A DNA stretch of 52,203 bases, filler included, from Bipalium vagum (lineage: Eukaryota): NCBI GenBank assembly GCA_037834085.1. It is 3 parts of 3 records of this genome, joined end to end, with 100 filler letters (N's around TTAATTAATTAA, not from the genome) between each part and the next. Parts side by side here need not be neighbours in the genome. Positions count along the whole stretch, not along the records: positions 16,899 to 33,801 come from JBBMKC010087258.1; 2 more parts are not named here. One strand, 5' to 3'. Positions 4,117 to 43,209 of this stretch are shown here, piece by piece. How positions within the stretch are numbered: position 1 is the stretch's first letter; each line of letters begins with the position of its first letter. The notes below the pieces were generated by a model. It was not told the origin of the DNA, ran no database searches, and saw only the letters and a program-made list of their open reading frames with translations. The translations under genes were made by a program, and so were the position numbers.

Positions 4117-4950
4117 TTATATTCGTGCATAAGTTCGTGTAATTTTATTTTTGTGCAAAGAAAAAACACTAATTTCTTGTTTTAACTTAATTGAGTAATT
4201 GAGTTATCTATTTAAATCATTTTAGACTAACTTTCACTTTCAGCACCATCATTAAAATGAAGTGTCAGGTAGATAAAATACAACATTTCCGACATCTACT
4301 CATTTTCTATTTTAATCAACACAACCGATTACATGTTGCGGTTATGGAGAAAAAGCAGACAGTGAACGAACAGCACAAAAGTTGTTTTCGAAATTTAACA
4401 CTAGAAATTTTGATTTAAACGATGCACCTCGGTCAGGCCGACCTAGTGACTTTGATGAAGACTGTTTGAACTACTTCACATTAGCACTTGAAAAACCCAT
4501 GGGTTGTGATCACACTACTATTTCTCGAGATCTACAGAAAATGAAAAAGGTTCAAGAGTTTGGAATATGAGTGTACCTCCCGTTCTCAAAGAATGTCACA
4601 AAATCAACGTGTTTCTTTTTCCGCATCTTTACTAGTTCGCCATCAATTCTCGAACCATCTTTTTGGTCTCAATTTGCAAAGGAAGAAGAAATAACAACGT
4701 GGATGAAGAATTTTTCGACCAAAAATCATCAAGCTTCTTCAAACATTGGATTGAAAAACTGCCAGAACGGTGGAAGGAGATGATCGATTGATGTGGAGAA
4801 TATCTCACCGATTGAGATTGAGATATTTGTTTTTTCTAATGATTTAATAAATTCATTTTGTTATCTGGAATTTTTTACATGGTTTTTATTCTTGATCAGT
4901 ATGCATTTTTTACAATTATAAAAAACGCCCAAACTTATGCACCAACCCAA
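4117..4950 (+). mobile_element. Internally deleted mariner (cecropia-like TIRs)
   Basis: TA-flanked imperfect TIRs (TTATATTCGTGCATAAGTT vs TTGGGTTGGTGCATAAGTT); MKCQVDKIQHFRHLL; FDLNDAPRSGRPSDFDED; GLKN/LPERW tail. Confidence 0.9.
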
Positions 4951-13339: not shown

Positions 13340-14219
13340 TTTATATAGGATTGATGTTGTTGATGTTTTAGGTGCATTTTTTCAATTTGCTGAGTATATC
13401 TTTTCCGTAAGAAAGTTATTGAACGGATTCAGTAACTTTCTTTGATGAATTAGATCGGACGCAGATCAACAAATAGCCACCATCAATTTCTTTTGGTGTA
13501 ACTTCGGTTTTGCAAAATGCTGTGGGCCTTGATTATGGCCTAACCATTGAGCTGACCGACATCGATTGTCGCACAGTATCAACTTTTAGTCAGTGATCAC
13601 AATCCGTTCGAGATAAGAATCATTATTGTTGCACAAAATGTACGAAAATGCAATCTCAAACCGACTATTTTTTTGATTTTCATTTAAGTCGTGTGAAACC
13701 CACTTGTCGAACTTTTTGTACTTACCAATTTCTCTCAGATAATATGAAATTGTTTCAATTGTAACACATAAGTCTTTTACAAGGACTCTGGTAAGCGGAG
13801 TCACCTCTCCCAATGCTTTTAATTGGTTATTATCGATTGAAGTCTTTTGTTCATAACCCTCCTTAATTTTAATTGTCTAATCTAAACCCCGAAACTTTTT
13901 GAACCAAAATTGAAGGTATGTTTTTTAGTGGTTCCCTCACCGAATACCAAATAGTTGTTGTGACATGCTTCCGATGATTTGTGTCTCAGTTTAAACTCAA
14001 AAAATACACATAATTGATTATTTTCCATTGTACATTAAAATATTCATAATAGCGTAAAAAAATATAAAATTAAATAATAATGAAATACTTATATACGTAA
14101 TTTAAGTTGAACGCTTTAAAATGATATATAATATGTATTTAAACAACAAAAAATTATATCAAAATAACGTTAAATAAATTAGATTTATAAAAACCGACAT
14201 TCATTTTTAAACAATCTAG
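13340..14219 (-). mobile_element. Degenerate mariner, 5' TIR present, 3' part deleted
   Basis: TA|CTAGATTGTTTAAAAATGAATGTCGG TIR; KKFDKWVSHDLNENQKNSR...LERIVITD; QHFAKPKLHQKKLMV. The left boundary is approximate. Confidence 0.88.
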
Positions 14220-16798: not shown

Positions 16799-16898
16799 NN
16801 NNNNNNNNNNNNNNNNNNNNNNNNNNNNNNNNNNNNNNNNNNTTAATTAATTAANNNNNNNNNNNNNNNNNNNNNNNNNNNNNNNNNNNNNNNNNNNN
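16799..16898. other. Artificial assembly spacer (44 N + TTAATTAATTAA + 44 N)
   Basis: Exactly 100 bp, with a six-frame stop linker at 16843-16854; identical to 33802-33901. Confidence 0.97.
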
Positions 16899-17344
16899 AA
16901 GGAAAGGAAGAGGTGCAGGACAAACCGTGTCCAGTGACAACAAGAAGAATGTTCGAACTTGGTGACGAAGTGCTCGTAAAAGTTGAAGGCAGAAGTAAAG
17001 ATAAAGAAAGATATGAAGGACCATATACAGTCAACAGGAAAATTCATGTGAGAAGATATCTACTTGAAGACAGAAATGGGAAACTGATTGAGAGAAATGT
17101 TGAAAAAATTAAAAACTTCTTGAAAGGGGGATGTGAGTATTTGAACATATTTTTGAATTTTTAAATTTTTATAGTGTTCTTTTTAAAATCCAATATGGAT
17201 GTTCATTAATTTAATGTATTAGTTAATTTTAAAATATTAATTTAATTTTTAAATATCTTTCTTAAAAAATAATAAGAGACACTTTATTTAAATTAATTAA
17301 TTTAAGAAATTTGTTCAAGTATTTTTATTTTTATTGGAATAACA
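16899..17344 (+). mobile_element. 3' end of a Ty3/Gypsy retrotransposon: integrase GPY/F tail, polypurine tract and probable 3' LTR
   Basis: FELGDEVLVK...RYEGPYTV...RYLLED..GKLIERNVEKIK; PPT AAAGGGGGA followed directly by TGTG at 17132. The LTR end at ...AATAACA (17344) is tentative. Confidence 0.85.
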
Positions 17345-18359: not shown

Positions 18360-18730
18360 GTTATGATAAACTATTATTTTTTGAAAAAGGAAATAGAGGT
18401 AGATAAATTTCAGTTTTTGGGAAATAAAAAAGTTGAATGTCTTCATAAAAAAACCAAATTTAAAAAATGACCTTTTCAAAATGCAATTTATTTCATATAA
18501 TAAAAGAGAAAACAATTATTTATTATATGATGCAAATAGCTTATATCCATCAGTAATGATACAAGAATTACCAACAGAAGAAATGGGATGGTCTGAAGAT
18601 GACAATTTTAAAAAACTTTATTTTTTATTAATTAAAAGTAATTGAAATTTTGTTTATGAAATGGATTTAGAAATCCAACAGAGATAAAAGATAAAACTAA
18701 ATATTATCTGTTTTGTCCTGAAAAAGTTTA
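18360..18730 (+). pseudogene. Fragment of a Polinton/Maverick-type (protein-primed family B) DNA polymerase
   Basis: Colinear motifs LLFFEKGNRG (cf. FEKGIRGG), LLYDANSLYPSVMIQELP (Pol motif A, DxNSLYP), YEMDLE/NPTEIKDKTKYYLFCPEK (cf. EVDLEYP..HD..PFCPE), with frameshifts. Confidence 0.85.
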
Positions 18731-21725
18731 CTTATTGAAAATGAATTTTCTGATTATAAAACACATGGCTTTGACGGTGGAAGCAATAGATATTATTATT
18801 ATTATTATCAACTATCAATATTATAAATTCATCATTATTCAAAAAACCTACAGAAGCATTAACAAAATTTGTCTTTTACACTTTAAATTCAATGCAAAAT
18901 CAGATCCCAATCATAAAAATAGGGAGTACAAAAAAGTAACCGTTATATATTCTATATGTTCATATAAAAATAATAATAACGTTTATAATCAACTATGATA
19001 ATAATGATAATTGAAGATATAATAATAATAAATAAATAATATTATTTGATAATAGTACTCAATGATAACCGATAAAGATTATAATAGATAATATTTTAAT
19101 ATTAATATAATGGTAGTAATTCATAAAAATTTAATTAGTCCTTTCAATATGAAAAATAAAATATTTATTTTCTAACTATTTTTAGGCGAATTAAAAGATC
19201 ATTAATTACTCAGCTCAGGCGAATACATTCGGGTTGAGCTGAATAATTAAAAACCCCCGATTTATCGATTAACTTATGGAAAAGGAGACTATTCGTTGAG
19301 TGGTGAAGAGACTATGGTGTGGATAGAAATTCATTAGACTCGTACATAAATAAAAACGCTTCTGAAATGACACTTTGTAAAACTACATAGTTAATAAACT
19401 TAATCACTTTTCTATTTAACCACCTTCTGCTACCAGGTATTTAGTCTATCGATCTATCACAGAAAAGAGACCATTTTCGAAGAAAGTAGTAGACTACATA
19501 ATTTTCTGATTCCAATACTCCCTTGATGATACATTTTTTTCAAAAAATTCGTACTTAATGTCAACTATTTAAAGCAAATATAATAATACCCACATATATT
19601 TATTAATTAATTTATTTTAAAAATTTCATGAAATTCTTAATTTTATTTCTATTTCAGTCACATCAATAATCAGGGAGTATTAGAATCTATACATCACAAG
19701 AAAGTCAGTTAAAAATGTTGAATTTAAACTTCTTGTGAAATAAAACAAAACCCAAAAATGAATCGATCAAAAACGGAAAAGAAGAATTGGCCGGATCAAA
19801 TGTTTGACCCTTCAATGATTATTTGTCACTTTCATTTTTTCTTTAGTGTTTATCAAATAAATTGATTATTTTTATCCGCATAGCGAACGGACCAAAAGAA
19901 AAACAGTGGAGTCAGGGAGAGAAAAATAGAGTTCGAATCCGGGACAAAAATAAAAAAATTGGTTAGTATTCTTTTGAATATTAACATAACGAAGGTCCAC
20001 AAAACTTTCATATATTTAAATATAAAAAGATATTTAATTAAGTATACTAAATACTAGTTATACTAGTATTAATCAACAATAAACTAATCATTTCAAAATA
20101 TAAATCAAGGTATATACTTTTTAGAAATACAATTTAATATCAAAGTTTTTTTCGGTGTACATTATTGGTCCATTGTCACGTGTTACTAGCTAGCTTTTTT
20201 ACAACTTGGTCTGATTTTCTAATGCAATATTTAATACAATTAATAAGTTAGTCAGCAGTTTCATCTTTCAAATGTTGTCTATACCGATTTCTTTTCAGAA
20301 TCCCACAAAAATATTCGATAATACGTATTTCTGGAGTTTTAAGATAACTGTCTCCTTTTTCAACTCGATTGCATTAAGAAATCCAGTTTTTAAAAAAATA
20401 ATGTGAAACAGCCAAGTGACTGACACGGAAGGCATCTTACTATTCAGTCTGAAGATGATATAAAGCAAAGCTTGGGTTAAATTTCATTATCGTTTTTATT
20501 ATTTAATGACAAACTCAATGAGAATTACATAAAGATATTGATTTGAAGATTGAATTATTATGGATGGTTTATCTCTTTCTGTCATAGACATCTCAAGTTT
20601 TGAAAATATTTTTGGTCGAAAAATAAAATTTATATTTAAGTTAGAAATTCCTAAGATGTCAGAGTAAATAAAAGATGCACTCTCGATTCAATTTTGAAAT
20701 TAATGTTTTTCAATATTTTATTTTCAACTAAGTTTTTATATTAATAAAATTTATTATTTATTAGCAGTCACAAATATTCCGTTGCTTAACTGTAAATATA
20801 TTAGAATTTTTTCAGCATCGCTCCACTTAAAACAAGGGCATCACAAATATATTTTTTCATATTTCAATGATATTGATAATAAATCCTACACAAACCTGTA
20901 AAAGAATAGCGTTCGAAAGCATAATTTACAACCAGACATGAAACAATTCGAAAAGGATTAAAAACTAGAAGACTTGGACAACCAATTTTTATAATTTTAA
21001 AATAAATAAATAATAAGGTCAATTCAGCAGGAACCTCAGCGTGTTAATTAAAATAATATTTTTTCGAAAACCGAAACACAAGATTATTCAAAATATTCCT
21101 GATATTAATATATGTAGATGTAATTGATAATAAAAGTGAAAATCGAAACCAAACAAACGAAATCACTGAATCCTGAATAATCTTTGTGTCTTGTGGTATG
21201 GTATAAAATACGATAAATGAAGCATAAATATTGAAAAATTGATTTATAACTATAAACCAAATTTAGAACCTATTGGAAATAAATAAAAATCAATACACTA
21301 AAATCACAAGTACTAATATGTGGATATTGTCCTAAGGTGGAGAGATAGCAAACATTAGACAATTTCATTCAGCAAACATTATTCGTCAGTGCCAAAAAAA
21401 TTTTCCAATGACCTAAGCACCTTTCGAACAATTACTCGAGGCAAAGTTAGATTGTCTTCGGAGATTTCGTCTTTTTTCAACTTTATGATTTGCTCACAAG
21501 AATCTTTGGATTTGCATTGCATCTTAATCTTCATTCTTTCCGTCTTACCATCATCATCTAAATAGAAGATTATTTTTCTCTGGTTGCAGAAATTTTTTCT
21601 GATTATATTATTGATTAAATGTGAAAGAATATTATTATGAAAATCAGGGATTTATATCACTAAAAAAAAGTATTATCTTAATAAGTCTAAGAAATTATAA
21701 TATCCAATTATGATATTATTTATAG

Positions 21726-23542: not shown

Positions 23543-24559
23543 AAAATAAGCCACAAAATAAAAGAAAATAGTGACTTTGTTAATAATATTAACATTAATA
23601 AATAAACTAAAATTGTAGTAATAATAGTTGGTAAATATTGTTCCTAAAGAATAACATTTTAAAAGGAGGAAATGTTGAAATTTCAACAAAATATCATACA
23701 AGAAAATTTTATTCACAAGAATTTATAATCAAGGCAATATCTATAAATGTCGCAATGAACATTCTACAGAAACCAACAGTGAATTCAAGAAATTGATTGG
23801 TCATTAAAAGAAATAATAGTAAAAGGATAAAAATTAGAAAAATGTTTTTTTTTTAAACAAAAAATTATTGTAAATGTACATTACCAATTTCTAATATATT
23901 AGTAAATCTGTTTTATTGAACTGTATATTTATTAGAAAATAAACTAAGGATAACAATAAATGACATTGTTTCTCAAATGTGTAGTAAACTTATGATAGAT
24001 TTTACAATTTTTCAAAATTTTATTTATATTTAAATAAATTGCACATTAAAAATAATTTTAAAATAAAAGTACCTTTTATAGATGGGTCAGCAGTCTGATT
24101 TTTCTAAATAATAAAAATGTTATTTATTTTCATAGAAATAAATAATCTTAAAATACATATAATATTTTTATGGACATTATAAGTAGAATTAAACATGGAA
24201 TGAAAATTTTTACTTAGTTCATTATATAATAATTATTAACCGAAATATCAATTGACAAATATTTTCTTAAAAATATATTTATTATCAAAACACGCACGTA
24301 GAAAGGCCGCTCTACTTAAAATAGTTTTTAATTCGTTAAATTAATATAATTGGCCTTTATTTTATAATACAAATTGTAATCATATAAAAGTTTATATTTT
24401 ATAAATTATATAAAAAAGTTAATAAAGCAACCTTTGAAATATAAATAAGATGTTTTATATTTAATTTCTTTCTAAATTTTGATTAATTTTAAATATTAAA
24501 GCACGTTATAAAATTCTACACTATAATAAGATATTTTTATTAATAAATATGGTAAACAA

Positions 24560-25823: not shown

Positions 25824-28618
25824 TCATACTTTTGTGGAAGTGATAAACGACTTTTCAAATTTTTGATAATCAGGAATTCCATCGCCATCTTCATCTTCTT
25901 GATAATCTGGTATTCCATCTCCATCAGAATCTTTTTCTAAATAATCTGGAATTCCGTCTCCATCTGCATCTTCTTTATAATCTGGTATTCCATCACCGTC
26001 AGAATCTTTATCTAAATAATCCGGAATTCCATCTCCATCAGAATCCTCTTGATAATCCGGTATCCCATCTCCATCAGAATCTTTTTCTAAATAATCTGGA
26101 ATTCCATCTCCATCAGAATCTTCTTTATCATCAGGTATTCCATCTCCATCAGAATCTTTATCTAAATAATCAGGAATTCCATCTCCATCAGAATCCTCTT
26201 GATAATCTGGTATTCCATCTCCATCAGAATCCTTTTCTAAATAATCAGGTATTCCATCTCCATCTTCATCTTCTTGATAGTCTGGTATTCCATCTCCATC
26301 AGAATCCTTTTCTAAATAATCAGGTATTCCATCTCCATCTTCATCCTCTTTATAATCTGGTATTCCATCTCCGTCAGAATCTATTTCTAAATAGTCAGGA
26401 ATTCCGTCTCCATCAGAATCTACTTTAGAACCAGATACTTTAGAATCTTTATTTTTATCTTTTACACGGTTCGACTTTTCATCTTTATTAGTATATTTTT
26501 CTAAAATATCTGTTTTACCATTTTCTTTATCTTGGAGATTTGAAACTGCGTTTTCATCAGAATCTTTATCCAGATAATCAGGAACACCATCTCCATCTTC
26601 ATCTTCCATATAATCAGGAATTCCATCTCCATCAGAATCATTTTCAAGATAATCAGGAATTCCATCACCATCTTCATCTTCCTTGTAGTCCGGAATTCCA
26701 TCTCCGTCAGAATCCTTTTCAAGATAATCAGGAATTCCATCACCATTTTCATCTTCTTTATAATCCGGTATTCCATCTCCATCTGAATCTTTTTCTAAAT
26801 AATCCGGAATTCCATCTCCATTTTCATCTTCTTTATAATCAGGTATTCCATCTCCATCAGAATCCTTTTCTAAATAATCAGGTATTCCATCTCCATCTTC
26901 ATCTTCTTGATAGTCTGGTATTCCATCTCCATCAGAATCTTTTTCTAAATAATCAGGTATTCCATCTCCATCTTCATCTTCTTGATAGTCTGGTATTCCA
27001 TCTCCATCAGAATCATTCTCAAGATAATCAGGTATTCCATCTCCATCAGCATCTTCTTTATAATCTGGTATTCCATCTCCATCTGAATCTTTTTCTAAAT
27101 AATCTGGAATTCCATCCCCATCAGCATCTTCTTTATAATCAGGTATTCCATCTCCATCTGAATCCTTTTCAAGATAATCTGGAATTCCATCTCCATCTGA
27201 ATCTTCTTTGTAATCCGGTATTCCATCTCCGTCAGAATCGATTTCAAGATAATCAGGAATTCCATCTCCATCTTCATCTAGCTTTTTATTTTGATTCTTG
27301 TTTTTCTGGGAAATTTTTTCCGGATTCTTCTTCGGTCCATCATTTGCATTAGAAGCTGAAACATGAGGAATCTTTTTATCTTTAGAGTCTAATTTATTAG
27401 ACTTCTGTTCATTCTTTTTATTTGTGATGGTAGGAATAGGATTTTGAGTTTTACTTAATTCTTTAATTTTTTGATTTTTGGGATTTTTATCAACTACAGA
27501 TTGCGAAATTTTTGTTTTTATGTTTGTGTCGTATTTTTTCTGTTTTCCAGGATCTGTAGTTACCGATATCGATTTCTCTTTGGTGACTTGATGTATGGGT
27601 TCCTTCAACATTTCGATTTGTTCTTCATACTCAGTCGAATCATCTTCTTGATTATTTTCATCATCTAGTTCAACTTCTTCGGATTGAACCTCTTCGCTTT
27701 CATCTATTGATAATAATTTTCTATTTTTGACGTTTGTCTCCTTCTTTTTCTCAGATGATTTTAATATTTTTCTGATTGACTTTTCTCTGAGTTTACAATC
27801 AAGTATTCCGTCTCCATTTGCGTCATCATCCAACTCATCGTTTATTCCATCATTATCATCATCAATGTCAACATTGTCCATTATTCCATCATTGTCTGAA
27901 TCTTGCATATCATCATCTACTCCGTTATCGTCGGCATCCTTGTCTTTAGAATCAGGAATTCCATCGCAATCATGATCTAAAATTCTTTTAGATTTGGTTG
28001 ATGGCTTTGGTTTCTTTACATTCTTAACAACCTTAACCGGTTTTTTCTTTATTGGTGCTTTCTTCGTGGTCTTTTTTGATTTTTTTTCCACAATAGGCTT
28101 TGTTTTAACTGATTTTGTAGGAACAACTGGAGCCTTTGTTACTTTTGTTTCAGTCTTCACAGTCGAATGTTTTACTTCACTAGTTGTTTTTACTTTTTTA
28201 TTCGTAGATTTCAATTTTGTTTCTGTTTTAGATTGGGAGGTTTCTGGTGATTTTGAGACTGTGGGTTTTGGAGGTTTTGTTACTTTAACAGGTGTTTTGG
28301 TTGTTACCGCTGATTGGGTTGTTTTATGCTTACTTTCTTTTGGTTTTTTAGTTTTTTTACTAACTGGTGAGTCGGTTGATTTTTTAAACGTTTTTCCTGA
28401 TTTACCAATTTCCAAGGCTTGTTGGCGAATAAGTTTTAGGTTGATTGACTTCTTTTGATTTTCTATGTTAGCTTCTTCTTCAGTTTGTTTACGTATTCTT
28501 AGGACGCGTTTTATTTTTCCACTTCTAGATTTAATCAATTTATAATTTATGAAATCATCACGTCTGCAATCAGGTATTCCATCTCCATTAGCATCTGGAT
28601 CATTGACATCCAGTATTC
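25824..28618 (-). CDS. Terminal exon (2795 nt) of the Ca2+-binding repeat protein
   Basis: 934-aa ORF in the track. The exon starts at the acceptor tctttag|GA (28618), so the ORF's MSL start is intronic. It contains Lys/Thr-rich linkers, one full Cys module and 34 C-terminal DxDGDGIPD motifs. Confidence 0.93.
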
Positions 28619-31600
28619 CTAAAGACATAACGTTTCTTTTAATATCGGAATAAAATTATATACCATCATTATCATCATCTTCGTCAATATGATTCAAATC
28701 TCCATCCATATCAGAGTCCTGTGTACGATCGATCTTTCCATCATTGTCAATATCAAGGTCCATATCATCAGGAATTCCATCACAGTCTTTATCGCCTCGA
28801 TCTCCAAGATCAACATCAACATTGGCCTCCTGTCTGGCTTGAGAAGCTAAGATTTTTTAAAAAAATATCATTCTCTTCATTTTCAATAATAAGAACCAAT
28901 CATTATCATTTTTATTATCTGAAAATCTGCTCTAAGCTTCTCTTACTTAAATATTATAAATCTTTTGTCCAATGAAATCTTTTGTACGAATAATTAAACT
29001 AATTAAATTTTAAAAACAAAAAAATCTTTGATTATAAGGAATTAAAAAAAATTAATTATTAAAAACTAAATATACAGGGTGCATCAGCTATTTGAGTACA
29101 AAAATTGTTAATATATATCATGATAATTTTTTTAGTGGCTCTAAAATTGATGTACAATATTTATTGATACAACATTAAATAATTATTCTTTAATTTAGAA
29201 ATGGAAGAGATAACTTTTGAATTAACACAAAAAATGAAAAAAGCTTGCAGTTATTGTTGCATTAGCCGCCGGACACAGTGATTTAGAAATTTCTTAATGT
29301 GGTCAAATCGTTTGTCAATAAAATTAGAAAGGAATGTTTGGCATCTGATCGAAATGTTGACTCTATATCTAAAAGAAAAACATATTCCTCATGTTCAGAC
29401 ATTGTCAGAAATGTTAATTTTGTTCAAAAAGTCCAAGATTTTGCTCATGAAAGTCCCGGAAAATCAATGAGAGAAATTGCCTATCGACTATCGGTTTCTG
29501 AGTCAACAGTAAGACGAACGGTACACAATGATTTAAAATGCAAGTCCTACGTCATGAGAAGAAGACGTTTTGTATCGGCAAAAATCAAAGAAAATTGTTT
29601 AATCTGCTCGAAGTGTCTTTTAAATAAAACCAAGCATCCTGATCATCCAAACATGCTATGATTCTTTTCTGATGAAAAACTTTTTACTCAAGATCTAAAG
29701 GTTAATAGGAGGAACGATCGATGGCTGTCCTCCAGTGCTTCTGAAGTCCCTAATGCTATGGACAACCAAGTTTCCATCATCTTTAATGATATTGGGTGTT
29801 GTGAGCAACGAAGGTCATGTTATGCCTCCGCATTTCTTTCCACAGGGACTTGGAATTAATGCATCTATTTATATACATATGTGAAGTCCTGGATTAAAAA
29901 AGTTGCCTACGGAAGGCCTTCTGTATTCCAACAACACTCAGCTCCCTGCCATACAGCATTAAAAACACAAAAATGGCTATCGCTAAATTTTACCGACCAT
30001 GTCACTCAAAACTTATGGCCACCTAGCTCACCCGACTTAACTGCTTTGGACTATTTCGTATGGGGCGTCGTAGAGAAGGAGACGAACAAACATCCTCATA
30101 ATACCAAAGATTCATTATGAGCTTCTATAAGTTCTGCTATAATAAAGATGGAAAAAAAAATTTGATCGCAGCTTGTAAGCTGCTTTTCAGAAGCCGCCTT
30201 GAAGGTGTAATTAACAGTGAAGGCGATTTTATTGCATAAATAAAACTTGTGTGCTTAAAACAAATAAAGTTTCTAATACTGCTTAAAAATATAATTTCTT
30301 TTCATTAAAATATTACTTAACTTTAATATTAATATTTGTCCTCGAATAGCTGACGCTGTAATATTTAAATAAAATATTTTCAAAAAATCTTTTATTTTCC
30401 ATTTAATTTAAGAAAAATATTTTTAGAACATTTTATAGACAAATATTCACATTTTCAACTTAAATATCAAAAATGTGACCAAAAGACCTTTCTTCCGCTT
30501 GGTATATTTTTTAAAAACTAATCTAATTTATATTTTGATAAAAATTCCAAATAATGGATAAACTCATTATATTATAAAGGGTCTATCTGTATCCTTGATT
30601 CAAGAGAATAATACTTCAATACTTTTTGTTACTTATTAACATTAAAGGTTTTTACTTCAGGAAATAAAATATTATATTTGTACACCAAGAAAATGTGACT
30701 CATATATAAAATAAAAATATGATTTCCTTCCTCTATCTGCAAATGGTTTGTCCAGAATTGAAATAAATGTATTATGGTTGTATATAATTTAAGATTTATT
30801 TTTATCTAATCTTGAAAAATAATAAATAAGAAAAATATAATTTAACAATATCCAAATTCAAACACCATTTTAATCACTTGAAACATTTAATAATTATTAT
30901 TCTTGTCAACCATACGATTAGATGAGGGAAAAACTTTTATTGTCATACACAGATTTTTAATTTTCATATATTACTTTCAATTAAAAGTATATCCATTTTA
31001 TAAAATGTAAAGAAAATTGAATTATTATAATACTTTTCATTACATTTACCAGGCCCAATCTGCTGCTTATAACTCCTCTGGTCATTAGAAATACTTTGAA
31101 AGACAGAAGCTTCAACATTTTGATGAAATTTATAATAATATTGTCGTCATCATAACGTCAATTTCTCTGCCGAGCTTTTAAACTCAAAAACATTTTATAC
31201 GCCTTCGAAAAAAATGTTTTCACCGAAATTTGTAACAATAACATTTTCTACTCTATTTTATAAAATATGAAAATATTTCATCTTAAGTTCTGAATAATTT
31301 AATACAATTGTATATTTGTTGTACGTTTTATAAATTATAAATTATTTATTAATTTCAATTAACTAAATAAGTTTAAAATCAACCTGAGTAGTTAAATATG
31401 ATTTTATAATCAAACTTTAATAAAATCGGTAAAATTTTAAATAATTCTTTTATGTATTTAATGATTTTCACCATTTCATTTTACTGCTATATGCTTAACA
31501 GAACAAAAGATGATAAAAAATCGAAAGATGATATAAAAAATTGGATTTTTGAAAGTAATTTAAAATTAAAACAAAAATATATATCTTTAAAAAATTCCCA

Positions 31601-31905
31601 TATGACTATTAAAACTTTTCTATTCTAGTTTTATTTGGAAAAACCTAACAAATTATCTCTAGGAAATTCAATCTAAAAACACCAAATGTTTAAAACTAAT
31701 AAAATATCATTAAAAGTAACCGTGATCAAAATATAAAAATCCTCGTTAAAAAAATAAGTTACAATCTAAAACTAAAGAATAATAATTCTACATATAAATA
31801 ACAATAAGTAACAAAAATGGAACCATGAACAATAAAAGCAAAAATATAAAAAATAAATAAAAATAATAAACAATAAAAATAAAATAATAGTAATAACTAT
31901 TATTT

Positions 31906-31944
<39 letters not shown>

Positions 31945-33408
31945 ATTTTATTATATTATAACTATTAATATTAATATTAATATTATCCATCAAATATCTC
32001 AAATCAATGTTACCAACTCTAAATTTCTAACTCCTATAACATCAAGATTCTCTCGCTTTATTACTTAAAATAAAATTTTAAGATCTTGAAATCACGAAAA
32101 ACCAATTTTCCACATTTGACTAAATTTTAATTAAATAATAAAAAAACGATTTGGTTTACAGTACTTAATTTAAATTATCACGGTTACTTTTATTATAGAT
32201 CTAATAAAATAATCTAAAATTAAGACTATGGAAAATACTACCATCTAGAAACACTAGAATTTCTAAATTTTATTTCTTGATATTTAACCTTTGACTTCCA
32301 TAAAGTCATCGTTATCCGGTAATATTAGGCCATTAGGATAAAGTGTTATATAGAGCGGCATCAATCGACGTTGGATTGTTGGGATTATTCTTTCAACTAT
32401 TAACATTTTAAAGAAAGAAATAGTAAAATGTGTGGACAACCGTTAATAAAATTAAATAACTTTCCTTACCTGGTAAAGCATCCATTTGTTGAGTCTTTTT
32501 GTAAAGCAGAAAGGCCATTGAATCTGGATCCAAATAATCCGGTATTCCATCATTGTCATCATCCGGATCTAGATGATCAGGGATACCATCACCGTCTGAA
32601 TCCCGTGGTCTGCAATCAATGACTCCGTCTCCGTTTGCATCAGGATCGGATTTATCTTTAAGAATATTTTTGTCACATCATTAAGAATTGTTAATAATTA
32701 AAATAATAATTTCTCTCATAATTTCTGTAGCTGCATTGAACAACATTATTCTTCTTTAATTGTTCAACTAGTTTATTTAATTTATTAAAACAAAACTTCG
32801 AAATTTCTTAATAGATTCCAATATATTGGAAATCTCGTAAAAAATATTTCTAGAATTTTTTAATCTTGAAACAAAACTTTTCAGTATAACAGTATTTTCT
32901 GTTTTAATTGTTTCACATTTTATAAGCAATACTTATAAATAAAGTACAAAATATAAATATTTATAAAAAAAATTGACTTACCGGGTATTCCATCGTTATC
33001 ATCATCATTATCCCACTCGTTTAAGACACCATCATTATCGCTGTCCTAAGTAATAAAACCAAAGGATAATATACGATTTAATTTTTATTGATATTAATAT
33101 TATTTTATTTATTTATAATTATTAATTTTTTATTTATGCTTTTTGCTAAACCATACCTGTTTATTATCAAAGTATCCATCATTATCGTCATCTGGGTCAA
33201 TAAGATCGGGTATCCCATCACAATCTCGATCTTGCATGTGATCTGGTATTCCATCATTATTCATATCATTGTCAATATTGTCTGGAACTCCATCTTTGTC
33301 TTTGTCTGGAAATAGATCACTTTCACCATCTCCATCAGAGTCATAATCCCTGTGGTCAGGAATCCCATCATTGTCGTCATCTTTGTCCATACTATCTGGA
33401 ATCCCATC
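25824..33408 (-). CDS. Multi-exon, 5'-incomplete gene for a large acidic protein with DxDxDGIPD (thrombospondin type-3-like) Ca2+-binding repeats, at least 1195 aa; exons 33408-33157, 33045-32982, 32655-32470, 32396-32289, 28846-28664, 28618-25824
   Basis: Spliced by hand. All five introns are GT-AG (111, 326, 73, 3442 and 45 bp) with compatible phases (0,1,1,1,1). Summed exons give 3588 nt open to TGA at 25826-25824. Independent check: two Cys-x56-Cys modules that cross splice junctions come out at exactly 174 nt, the same as the third, intron-free copy. The first visible exon has an AG acceptor, so upstream exons are missing, probably beyond the spacer at 33802. Confidence 0.9.
25860..26420 (-). 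repeat. Coding tandem array 2: 15 alternating 13-aa and 12-aa [10 protein letters not shown] units
   Basis: 7x13 + 8x12 = 187 aa = 561 nt. Confidence 0.95.
26565..27278 (-). repeat. Coding tandem array 1: 19 alternating 13-aa and 12-aa [10 protein letters not shown] units (75-bp period)
   Basis: 10x13 + 9x12 = 238 aa = 714 nt, counted from the translation. Confidence 0.95.
28664..28846 (-). CDS. Internal exon (183 nt, phase 1-1): [27 protein letters not shown]...DEDDDND
   Basis: Acceptor tcttag, donor G|gtatat, open frame with DxDxDG motifs. Confidence 0.9.
29075..30358 (+). mobile_element. Near full-length, defective maT (DD37D) transposon in the 3.4-kb intron, antisense to the host gene
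   Basis: TA-flanked TIRs CAGGGTGCATCAGCTATTTGAG.ACAAA and its reverse complement (with a small deletion); FFSDEK; VFQQ[H]SAPCH...[13 protein letters not shown] with 37 residues between catalytic positions 2 and 3. The second Asp is mutated to His; there are stops and frameshifts. Confidence 0.93.
31711..32192. mobile_element. MITE-like element bounded by 16-bp perfect inverted repeats (intronic)
   Basis: TAAAAGTAACCGTGAT (31711-31726) and ATCACGGTTACTTTTA (32177-32192); the outer TA fits a Tc1/mariner TSD; contains an (AT)n tract. Confidence 0.6.
32289..32396 (-). CDS. Internal exon (108 nt, phase 1-1): [36 protein letters not shown]
   Basis: Acceptor aatag, donor G|gttaaa, open frame, higher GC than its flanks. 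It has no repeat motifs and its phases are symmetric, so it is less certain than the other exons. Confidence 0.7.
32470..32655 (-). CDS. Internal exon (186 nt, phase 1-1): [27 protein letters not shown]...QQMDALP
   Basis: Acceptor ttaaag, donor G|gtaagg, repeat motifs in frame. Confidence 0.9.
32982..33045 (-). CDS. Internal exon (64 nt, phase 0-1): [21 protein letters not shown]
   Basis: Acceptor cttag, donor G|gtaagt, repeat motifs. Confidence 0.9.
33157..33408 (-). CDS. Most 5' visible exon (252 nt, phase 0-0): [18 protein letters not shown]...DGYFDNKQ
   Basis: Acceptor catttag, donor CAG|gtatgg; overlaps track ORF 33130..33390. Confidence 0.9.
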
Positions 33409-33801: not shown

Positions 33802-33901
33802 NNNNNNNNNNNNNNNNNNNNNNNNNNNNNNNNNNNNNNNNNNNNTTAATTAATTAANNNNNNNNNNNNNNNNNNNNNNNNNNNNNNNNNNNNNNNNNNN
33901 N
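33802..33901. other. Artificial assembly spacer (44 N + TTAATTAATTAA + 44 N)
   Basis: Same structure as 16799-16898. Confidence 0.97.
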
Positions 33902-37988: not shown

Positions 37989-38630
37989 CTATTTATCATC
38001 GCACATAACCATTCTTTGCCAAGATATATATATTTCTGTCAACTGGTTTTTGAAGGAGTTGGTTGCAAATTTCAAATTGTTTTTTGCTTGCTTGACTGTC
38101 AATTGATGTGGATCTTGCCTTAGTCGTTTATATTCATAATTCAGGTAAATTAAATATTCATAAACGGTTGGCTTAGGAATAGCAAGTGTTGTCGACAATC
38201 CTCTGCAACTTGAATGTTGTTTATCCTCTAAGGCGACGCTTAATGCCCCTTCATCGAGGTCTGATGGGCGACCAAGTCGCGGTTTGTCATCTGAACAGAT
38301 GTCGTCTTTGTTGAAGTGCTTAAATCAGCTTGCCGCGGTATTTCGATGGACTATACCTATACCTTTAATGTCACCAATTTTTTCAGCTACAGCTTTTGCA
38401 CTTAATCTTTTTTTCAAATAAAAGCGCAATAGCTGTTTTATCTTCATTTATTTCAATCTAGATAAATCTTTTTATAAACTTAAATCTCTAAATTAAAAAT
38501 AATATTACGTTATCTGAAAATCGCGCTTTAAGATAATATATAAAAATTAACAAAACAAAATGTAATTTACCTAATAATATAATGGAAAATTAGTAACTAA
38601 TTATGCAAAAGAACTTTCCGGGGAGCTAAG
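37989..38630 (-). mobile_element. Mariner 5' half
   Basis: TIR-like end at 38630|TA; MKIKQLLRFYL...DDKPRLGRPSDLDE...DPHQLT...RMVMCDDK. Confidence 0.87.
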
Positions 38631-41963: not shown

Positions 41964-43209
41964 TTAGGTGTACAACTATAACTCCGGCTTTTTAATGAGA
42001 AAACTCAGACATTTATTACAAACTTTATTTAAAAACCTTTATTGAAAAGTTGTTCCATTGAAAGCTACAACCCTTGCCCACCTTTCAGGTAACTAATGAA
42101 TTCAATGAAAGAAAATCCAATTTTGGCGGTCTTTGGATCTGAACCTCTGTCCGGAAAGTTCTGATTGCAAAGTACGGAACAAATGGTAATCAGAAGGAGC
42201 GACGTCTGGTGCATAGGGCGGATGAGGTAAGACTTCTCATTTTGTACCTTCTAAGTAATTATTTACAACTGAATTAACGTGTGGACTTGCGTTATCATGT
42301 TGTAAAATTATCTTTTCGTGTCTAGTCATCCATTCCGGTCGGTTTTCATTCAAAGCTTGCTTCAAACGAATTAATTGTGATCGATAAAGTTCACCAGTTA
42401 GTGTTTGAGAAGATTTTAAAAATTTATAATAGATCACTCCTTTCTGATCCAACCAGATACACAACATAACTTTAAAAACGTGGACATTTTGTTTTGGTGT
42501 TGATGGACTGGGTTCACCTGATATCACCAAAGCTGTTTTGCGTTTTGGATTGTCACAACGAATCCATTTTTCGTCTCCTGTGATAATTCGATGCAAAAAA
42601 CTTTTCCTTTTTTGTCTTTGAAGAAGGACATCCAAATTTTTTTTCGCCGTTCAATGCATCTTTCTGTCAATTCATGTTGGATCCAAATTCCTAATTTTCG
42701 AATAATTCTTAAGCTGCCAGACGTTTTGAAATGCATTGTTGACTCACATTTAATGCGACAGCCAGATCAGATTGTGTTTGGCATAGATCTTCGTCCAACA
42801 GCCTTCTCGTATCTCTATCTTCACATTGTTTTTGTGGCTTCCCATGCTTCTTGTCGTTCGTATCATATTGGCCATTTCTAAAACGGCGAAACCAATCTAT
42901 ACATTTGGTCATCGAAGGAGCATGTTCTCTATAGGTATCTCGAAGCAAGCGGTACGTTTCCGCTGCAGTTTTCTTAGCAATAAAGTAATGTAAAATTATT
43001 TCCCGCAAATGTCGTTTTTTTGGAATGAATATTGACATTTTGAATAGCTATAATATTTAAACAAAGAATATTAAAGCAACCGTCTCGTGATATTATTGAT
43101 TATATGATATCTTTGTTTATAAATCAATTCAATATAATTTAGATATATATACAAACAAAATTTTTATTATCATTTTAAAAAAAAGCCACAGTCATAGTTG
43201 TACACCTAA
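41964..43209 (-). mobile_element. Near full-length mariner (mauritiana/Mos1-like), frameshifted transposase pseudogene
   Basis: TIRs TA|TTAGGTGTACAACTAT at both ends, 1246 bp; MSIFIPKKRHLRE..., WIQHEL, FLHRIITGDEKW, QHDNASPH, HPPYAPDVAPSDYHLF (DD34D). Confidence 0.96.

Follow-up and report, generated by a model that had tools for sequence, protein, structure and literature searches.

A cysteine-bracketed five-motif calcium repeat in Bipalium vagum and a possible GRP94-linked calcium store of flatworm muscle

RESULTS

A minus-strand gene with three bracketed modules

We analyzed 52,203 nucleotides of AT-rich DNA (filler included) from the flatworm Bipalium vagum (GenBank assembly GCA_037834085.1), hereafter the window, and within it a minus-strand gene encoding repeated modules of putative Ca2+-binding motifs of the thrombospondin type-3 (TSP3) kind. 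A sequence-only reading of this DNA had proposed that splicing brings out three 58-residue units, each bracketed by two Cys in an exact C-x56-C arrangement, and the splicing bears this out. Five exons, all with AG/GT borders, lie at 33408-33157, 33045-32982, 32655-32470, 28846-28664 and from 28618 onward, and they form a single open frame of 1159 amino acids ending at an apparent stop at 25824, which overlaps a GTATGA donor. The junctions are based on splice signals and homology. They are colinear with the homologs: in alignments of the spliced region with five of these, all four junctions are gap-free, and the break points of aberrant Schistosoma gene models coincide with the window introns.

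Copy 1 of the module (32612..33222) is spread over three exons, copy 2 (28566..28784) over two exons with a 45-nt intron, and copy 3 (27795..27968) is uninterrupted. In the five-exon frame Cys is encoded at 33222, 32614, 28784, 28568, 27968 and 27797 and nowhere else, and the Cys of each pair are separated by 56 residues in all three copies, with no insertion or deletion. The claim that these six were the only Cys was right for this part of the gene, which is 1159 and not 1195 residues long; the extended model presented below has eight. As first described, the introns differ in position: copy 1 has a phase-0 intron ahead of unit position 23 and a phase-1 intron within position 44, copy 2 has a phase-1 intron within position 41, and copy 3 has none. 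The motifs QDSD and DANGDG are indeed invariant within the window copies, but the A of the latter is often S in homologs (19 of 45 distinct modules). The consensus put forward for the unit fits the copies for the most part, with copy 3 carrying DDNG where DNDG was given. One point needs correction: the first Cys does not open the unit, since it lies inside the first Ca2+ motif (D-x-D-C-D-G), and the true start is three residues earlier.

Pairwise, the copies share 40, 36 and 36 of 58 residues. At the DNA level the identity is only 116-120 of 174 positions, and the copies are therefore old. A hidden Markov model (HMM) built from homolog modules only scores copies 1-3 at 91, 83 and 53 bits and the other 18 listed domains of the same protein at no more than 27. 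Since this window-free profile separates the copies from plain repeats, their presence is not due to chance.

The first visible exon (33157..33408), gap-free against fluke proteins, encodes residues 1-22 of copy 1 as well as TSP3-like repeats. The second (32982..33045, 64 nt) provides the middle of that copy, unit positions 23-44; the S. mansoni model P0040 loses the intact sequence from position 23 on and regains it at 45, which fits the two introns of the window. In the splice model and the alignment, the third exon (32470..32655) comprises the end of copy 1, two further Ca2+ motifs and a conserved linker, and the fourth (28664..28846) the first 40 residues of copy 2. The large exon that follows (25830..28618), with the GTATGA donor at its end, encodes the end of copy 2, a conserved segment, a Lys/Thr-rich linker, copy 3, acidic and basic linkers, and two Cys-free DGDGIPD arrays. 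The conserved segment (28403..28565), a non-repeat stretch recognized by alignment, is predicted to form a beta-hairpin and a helix; it is the best-scoring part of the structural model of a tapeworm homolog (predicted local distance difference test, pLDDT, about 57-75). The arrays of Cys-free 12/13-residue repeats span approximately 26559..27284 and 25863..26423.

Homologs in flukes and tapeworms

A search with one module as query returned 23 proteins. The module is present in eight of these, which come exclusively from flukes and tapeworms. Another 11 fluke records emerged from a second search and four more with modules from a cluster look-up, giving 23 module-bearing records (20 fluke, 3 tapeworm). 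Intact records from both groups have four modules, M1-M4. Judged by sequence, copies 1 and 2 are orthologous to M3 and M4, respectively (mean identity of 49/58 in both cases), and copy 3 is an extra, fast-diverged module: it is 36-38/58 identical to each of M1-M4, no counterpart was found at that place in flukes or tapeworms, and it forms the longest branch of the module tree while retaining both Cys, the spacing, QDSD and ANGDG. Over M3-M4 the window protein shares 74-75% of its residues with flukes and 68-70% with tapeworms; it sits on a long branch and its placement is unsure.

A discrete domain with Ca2+ motifs of known type

The unit had been described as discrete and unnamed, and the wider comparison agrees. 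Selection by the C-x56-C pattern in the fetched flatworm proteins gave 77 modules, 45 of them distinct. All 45 agree at non-Cys positions such as G16, Q22, L30 and NGDG, and at most other near-invariant positions the sole exception is the mis-spliced model P0040. Five Dx[DN]x[DN]G cores are present in 59/59 modules from the 14 intact homolog records and the window. Motifs 1 and 4 also match the type-3 consensus of COMP, DxDxDGxxDxxD (PMC5993830), strictly in all 59, so that the match is strict in two of the five motifs and limited to the core in the others. No Pfam family reaches its threshold with the module: matches of any kind were obtained with three of 12 module sequences (best E 0.069), the ~16 bits of four-module tapeworm proteins fall short of the curated TSP_3 (PF02412) cutoff of 25, and the module is also below the threshold of the bacterial TSP3 family (PF18884). 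Only the large exon, with its Cys-free arrays, passes (TSP3_bac, 184.6 bits; TSP_3, 119.3 bits).

Could the unit be a plain stretch of TSP3 repeats with incidental Cys, and no domain at all? Its motifs alternate at 13 and 12 residues as in plain arrays, and the module profile retrieves thousands of bacterial TSP3 proteins. Yet modules score 91-103 bits per domain (an upper range inflated by a profile built from the modules themselves), whereas none of the 6334 domains of 236 proteins from outside flatworms exceeds 47.9, and a leave-out HMM agrees. The signature QDSDxDG-x22-NGDG, like the bracketed module, occurs in none of those 236. We regard this explanation as very improbable, and as already largely refuted. 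The search covered 1.84 billion representatives and we used the best 150 of 4203 matches, which are dominated by repeat-rich proteins, so that single-module relatives outside flatworms may be missed; among the matches listed, flatworms alone have the module. Three C-D-G-x54-C matches from other organisms were rejected as chance, being identical at 10-13 of 58 positions.

Bacterial TSP3 proteins and Cys-free DGIPD proteins (P0296, P0332, P0333) match the Cys-free arrays of the window and lack the bracketed module. Among such sequences, P0296, P0333 and P0053 look like acidic proteins of eukaryotes with Cys-free DGIPD units, two of them with helix-like C-terminal stretches, and they might be functional analogues in other animals. 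P0332 has a signal-like peptide and two similar non-repeat domains, thioredoxin-like by eye, on either side of a TSP3-type array, a layout resembling a calsequestrin- or PDI-like protein with an inserted Ca2+ array.

Structural searches gave only weak matches. With a single module, phmmer found nothing in the PDB, and the module profile retrieved TSP-1 only (E 0.0075). AlphaFold modeled both a single module and a tapeworm protein with four modules poorly (pLDDT 59.7 and 40.1, respectively); the models do not resolve the fold and gave no C1-C58 distance. From the single-module model, Foldseek returned weak rows for COMP and TSP-2 (E 1-2) and VIA-align no match; ESM Atlas gave generic TSP3 clusters only, below 0.9. 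The type-3 repeats of thrombospondins and COMP (PF02412; PDB 1ux6, 1yo8, 3fby), the best though weak PDB matches, share the Ca2+ motif with the module. They differ in their disulfide staples, which span about 20 residues, as in C292-C312 of COMP (PMC5993830), whereas the module is a fixed five-motif unit, below the Pfam threshold, with one Cys pair 57 apart and no Cys between.

This difference bears on how the two Cys are paired. They might join neighboring modules or chains into a disulfide-linked polymer, with no ring, as the short span of the known staples could suggest; moreover, neither of the two poor AlphaFold models places C1 beside C58. However, the two Cys of a module are always separated by 56 residues, in contrast to the variable start-to-start distance from one module to the next (257 in the window, 126-162 in homologs), and for this reason we favor pairing within the module. 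There are always two Cys per module, and the isolated copy 3 keeps both. We consider a polymer quite improbable; a disulfide likely closes the module into a ring, which would bind Ca2+. The bracketed five-motif unit appears to be undescribed, though its Ca2+ motif is of a known type.

The two ends of the gene

Downstream of the GTATGA donor, the gene most likely continues through two further predicted exons. A 31-nt micro-exon (24073..24103), joining phase 0 to phase 1, is the sole candidate in 25829-21558 to pass the splice-signal filter. The top match in the window to an HMM built from fluke C-termini is at 21557-21379 (E 0.004), where a predicted terminal exon (21379..21557) would add two more Cys and a C-terminal amphipathic helix (~21447-21394), the segment with the highest hydrophobic moment in the window protein. 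The predicted product has 1227 residues and 8 Cys. The same kind of helix closes five fluke records; in these and in the window it ranks within the top 2% of hydrophobic moment per chain.

Upstream, a spacer of the form N44-TTAATTAATTAA-N44 (33802..33901) lies 394 bases from the first visible exon, and an identical one occupies 16799-16898. Both are likely artificial contig joins. The window is probably a set of concatenated contigs, in which neighborhood across the two spacers is meaningless. Searches by tblastn and HMM found no exon for GRP94, M1 or M2 in the window, as expected where an artificial join truncates the 5' part of the gene. A short ATG frame at ~51200-51120 (-), with a basic and then a hydrophobic stretch and a GT donor at its end, was rejected as a candidate first exon, being on the far side of the artificial join and unaccompanied by the upstream exons known from homologs. 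It may provide the signal exon of a different gene.

In fluke gene models the modules follow a GRP94 domain

GRP94 is normally a protein of about 800 residues ending in KDEL. In 18 of the 20 fluke records (14 species, 5 genera) a GRP94 domain precedes the modules; these orthologs have full HATPase and Hsp90 domains and a signal-like N-terminus, and in near-complete models a tail of ~1000-2500 residues replaces the KDEL end, which is absent from all 23 module-bearing records. The tail holds 30-97 motifs of the DxDxDGxxD type per chain, a number that varies by species. None of the three tapeworm records has the GRP94 domain, and the two complete ones open with a signal-like peptide of their own, which shows no clear likeness to GRP94 signal peptides in a comparison set without tapeworm GRP94. 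Entry into the secretory pathway or the lumen of the endoplasmic reticulum (ER), proposed earlier from the Cys pairs, is supported by the signal-like starts of full-length homologs. Short fluke GRP94s ending in KDEL also exist. In O. viverrini (P0148) and S. japonicum (P0152), the sequence of the short form agrees with that of the long one until no more than 11 residues of the short form remain and differs from there on, as it would if the two forms used alternative last exons. We infer that in flukes the GRP94 gene can skip its KDEL end and splice to the tail, and that the tapeworm tail has its own signal peptide. No long GRP94 was seen outside flatworms among the proteins fetched, in which no dedicated search for it was made. 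The names in databases ("endoplasmin," "putative thrombospondin," "hypothetical") conceal the long form.

The fusion could also be an annotation artefact, with the tail being a separate neighboring gene whose own signal exon is often missed; the account of the module would be unaffected. The stand-alone tapeworm proteins and the short KDEL forms are compatible with this, as is O. viverrini, with both split (P0148, P0010) and fused (P0032) models. Annotations may have been copied from species to species, and no junction-spanning peptide occurs among the 62 of 203 places covered in the supplement of a miracidium proteome (PMC4723143). Against it, there are 18 fused records over five genera and more than one long isoform in two species. 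Also, the split tail model of O. viverrini opens with intron-like sequence instead of a signal peptide, and flukes retain an extra RRLL directly after GRP94 that tapeworms lack. We hold an artefact to be unlikely.

Two further Cys patterns were seen in the tail. Most flukes have a CxxC just before the first RRLL (e.g., P0031 756-759). A Cx4C pair occurs later in the fluke tail (e.g., P0003 1706-1711), and the terminal exon of the window (21557-21379) has a Cx5C pair.

Motifs of site-1 protease type

The linkers between GRP94 and the modules are poorly conserved except for motifs of the form R[RKN][LI][LM]. Exactly two of them lie between GRP94 and M1 in 14/14 long fluke records, where shuffling leads one to expect at most 0.03, a value that overstates the significance because the pattern was picked after viewing the sequences and the species are related. 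Both tapeworm records scanned have one. Behind M4, an RKL[ASL] motif occurs in 11 of the 13 homolog records scanned, and the window has one too. In a motif scan of the window, an RKLL (27711..27722, -) matches both this motif, RKL[AS] after M4 in homologs, and the consensus of site-1 protease (S1P); a KRIL just before copy 3 (27978..27989, -) is a weaker candidate, with Lys and not Arg at P4. S1P cuts at R-X-aliphatic-Z, RRLL is the optimal site, and its cleavage can occur already in the ER (PMC8310232). The RRLL and RKL[LM] motifs fit this consensus. Conserved and placed between the parts of the protein, they are candidate cleavage sites.

Other sequences in the window

Open reading frames outside the tail gene resemble transposon debris. 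By eye, broken frames like mariner/Tc1 transposases lie at 42237-43047 (-), 37989-38324 (-), 4316-4783 (+) and 13586-13876 (-), and another at 29287-30120 (+) within the 3.6-kb intron of the gene. Two broken frames, ~49800-49000 (-) and 16847-17164 (+), resemble the gag zinc knuckle, RNase H and integrase ends of Ty3/gypsy elements. A frame at 18403-18645 (+) has the motif YDANSLYP, which we take to be typical of the family-B DNA polymerases of Polinton/Maverick-type elements.

DISCUSSION

We propose that the module is a disulfide-ringed Ca2+-binding domain and that the cleaved tail is a calcium buffer in the ER or sarcoplasmic reticulum (SR) of muscle. We give this proposal a probability of about 0.45. 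The precursor would enter the ER of muscle cells, where S1P would cut at RRLL and RKL[LM] and release GRP94 and acidic spacers from the block of modules. The C1-C58 bond would staple each five-motif unit into a fixed Ca2+-loaded core, and the Cys-free arrays, in chains with 30-97 motifs, could supply low-affinity bulk capacity. The amphipathic helix at the C terminus and the Lys-rich linkers might anchor the pieces to the membrane or to partners, replacing KDEL.

Evidence for muscle comes from published expression data. The schistosome gene Smp_340630 corresponds to Smp_030300 endoplasmin (PMC9559072, where the accessible part does not mention the tail). It marks two muscle clusters in schistosomula (area under the curve, AUC, of 0.63 and 0.67; PMC7749135) and is a marker of muscle in sporocysts (AUC 0.58) and miracidia (PMC10933418). 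The Fasciola ortholog marks muscle with an AUC of 0.83 (PMC13400776). The accessible supplements of PMC11349301 and PMC11484910 gave no match.

Several results should make one cautious about the buffer. The Fasciola ortholog also marks early male germ cells (AUC 0.80; PMC13400776). Atlas counts cover the whole gene, and the muscle signal may stem from the short GRP94. In the miracidium proteome, at the places covered in its supplement, 18 of the 20 PEAKS peptides per isoform belong to GRP94; the other two, from the tail, have scores of only ~16, and one of them maps to probable intron read-through (PMC4723143). Besides the post hoc choice of the protease-type motifs, the structure predictions are uninformative, and the absence of KDEL from every long form leaves retention unexplained. 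No GRP94 exon is present in the window, so that for Bipalium vagum the fusion is putative. Finally, S1P sites, disulfides and TSP3 motifs would suit a secreted protein equally well.

This last point leads to the main rival, in which the tail is a Ca2+-stabilized matrix protein secreted by muscle: it would be processed by S1P in the Golgi, exported, and have a structural role, like the type-3 repeats of thrombospondin and COMP, or a mineral-binding acidic one. Flatworm muscle is a main source of matrix. The N-termini are signal-like, KDEL is on no long form, and the nearest solved relatives, TSP-1, TSP-2 and COMP, are extracellular, though these matches are weak. It is the main rival because the tail has no evident means of retention. 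However, a Pfam search of the window exons and full-length homologs found no lectin, EGF or other adhesion domain, whereas thrombospondins 1-5 and COMP have EGF repeats and a C-terminal lectin domain. The extreme acidity and the species-variable number of repeats resemble bulk capacity, and the conserved amphipathic C-terminal helix suggests contact with a membrane. We find a secreted matrix protein somewhat unlikely, bearing in mind that the explanations weighed here are not mutually exclusive.

How would a luminal buffer of this kind compare with those of other animals? Vertebrates have calsequestrin, HRC, sarcalumenin and the ASPH splice products junctin, junctate and aspolin in the SR lumen, and alternative splicing provides sarcalumenin and ASPH with an acidic extension. 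The likeness, drawn from this general background, lies in the proposed acidic, high-capacity luminal Ca2+ store of muscle. The sequences belong to different families: the flatworm tail has TSP3-type motifs, is attached to the GRP94 locus and contains protease-type motifs, and neither the window exons nor four full-length flatworm homologs have a Pfam match to calsequestrin or the thioredoxin fold. With respect to GRP94/endoplasmin itself, the fluke orthologs share the HATPase and Hsp90 domains and differ by the tail in place of KDEL; the GRP94 part lies outside the window. We tentatively suggest, as a possibility that we think doubtful on balance, that flatworms built a muscle Ca2+ store from the GRP94 gene: a muscle splice form without KDEL would carry an S1P-released tail of disulfide-closed five-motif Ca2+ rings, with up to ~100 Ca2+ motifs, and act as an unrecognized substitute for calsequestrin, and a chaperone of the Hsp90 family would be produced as a polyprotein processed by a protease. 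The open-licence papers searched hold no description of the module, of the long GRP94 form, or of a protease-processed polyprotein of the Hsp90 family, and this layout of GRP94 appears to be undescribed.

If the proposal is true, a GRP94 of 1800-3300 residues with a cleavable tail of Ca2+ motifs would be unexpected for those who study chaperones. With 58-61 residues, the module is small enough for structural study of a new type-3 repeat packing. The work would also provide a concrete candidate for the luminal Ca2+ buffer of flatworm muscle: in the accessible part of a recent preprint, the tolerance of muscle to the Ca2+ signal evoked by praziquantel is explained by analogy with vertebrate calsequestrin, and no schistosome protein is named (10.64898/2026.10.16.759707). 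Since the tail has no close match outside flatworms among the matches listed, it could be a parasite-selective target.

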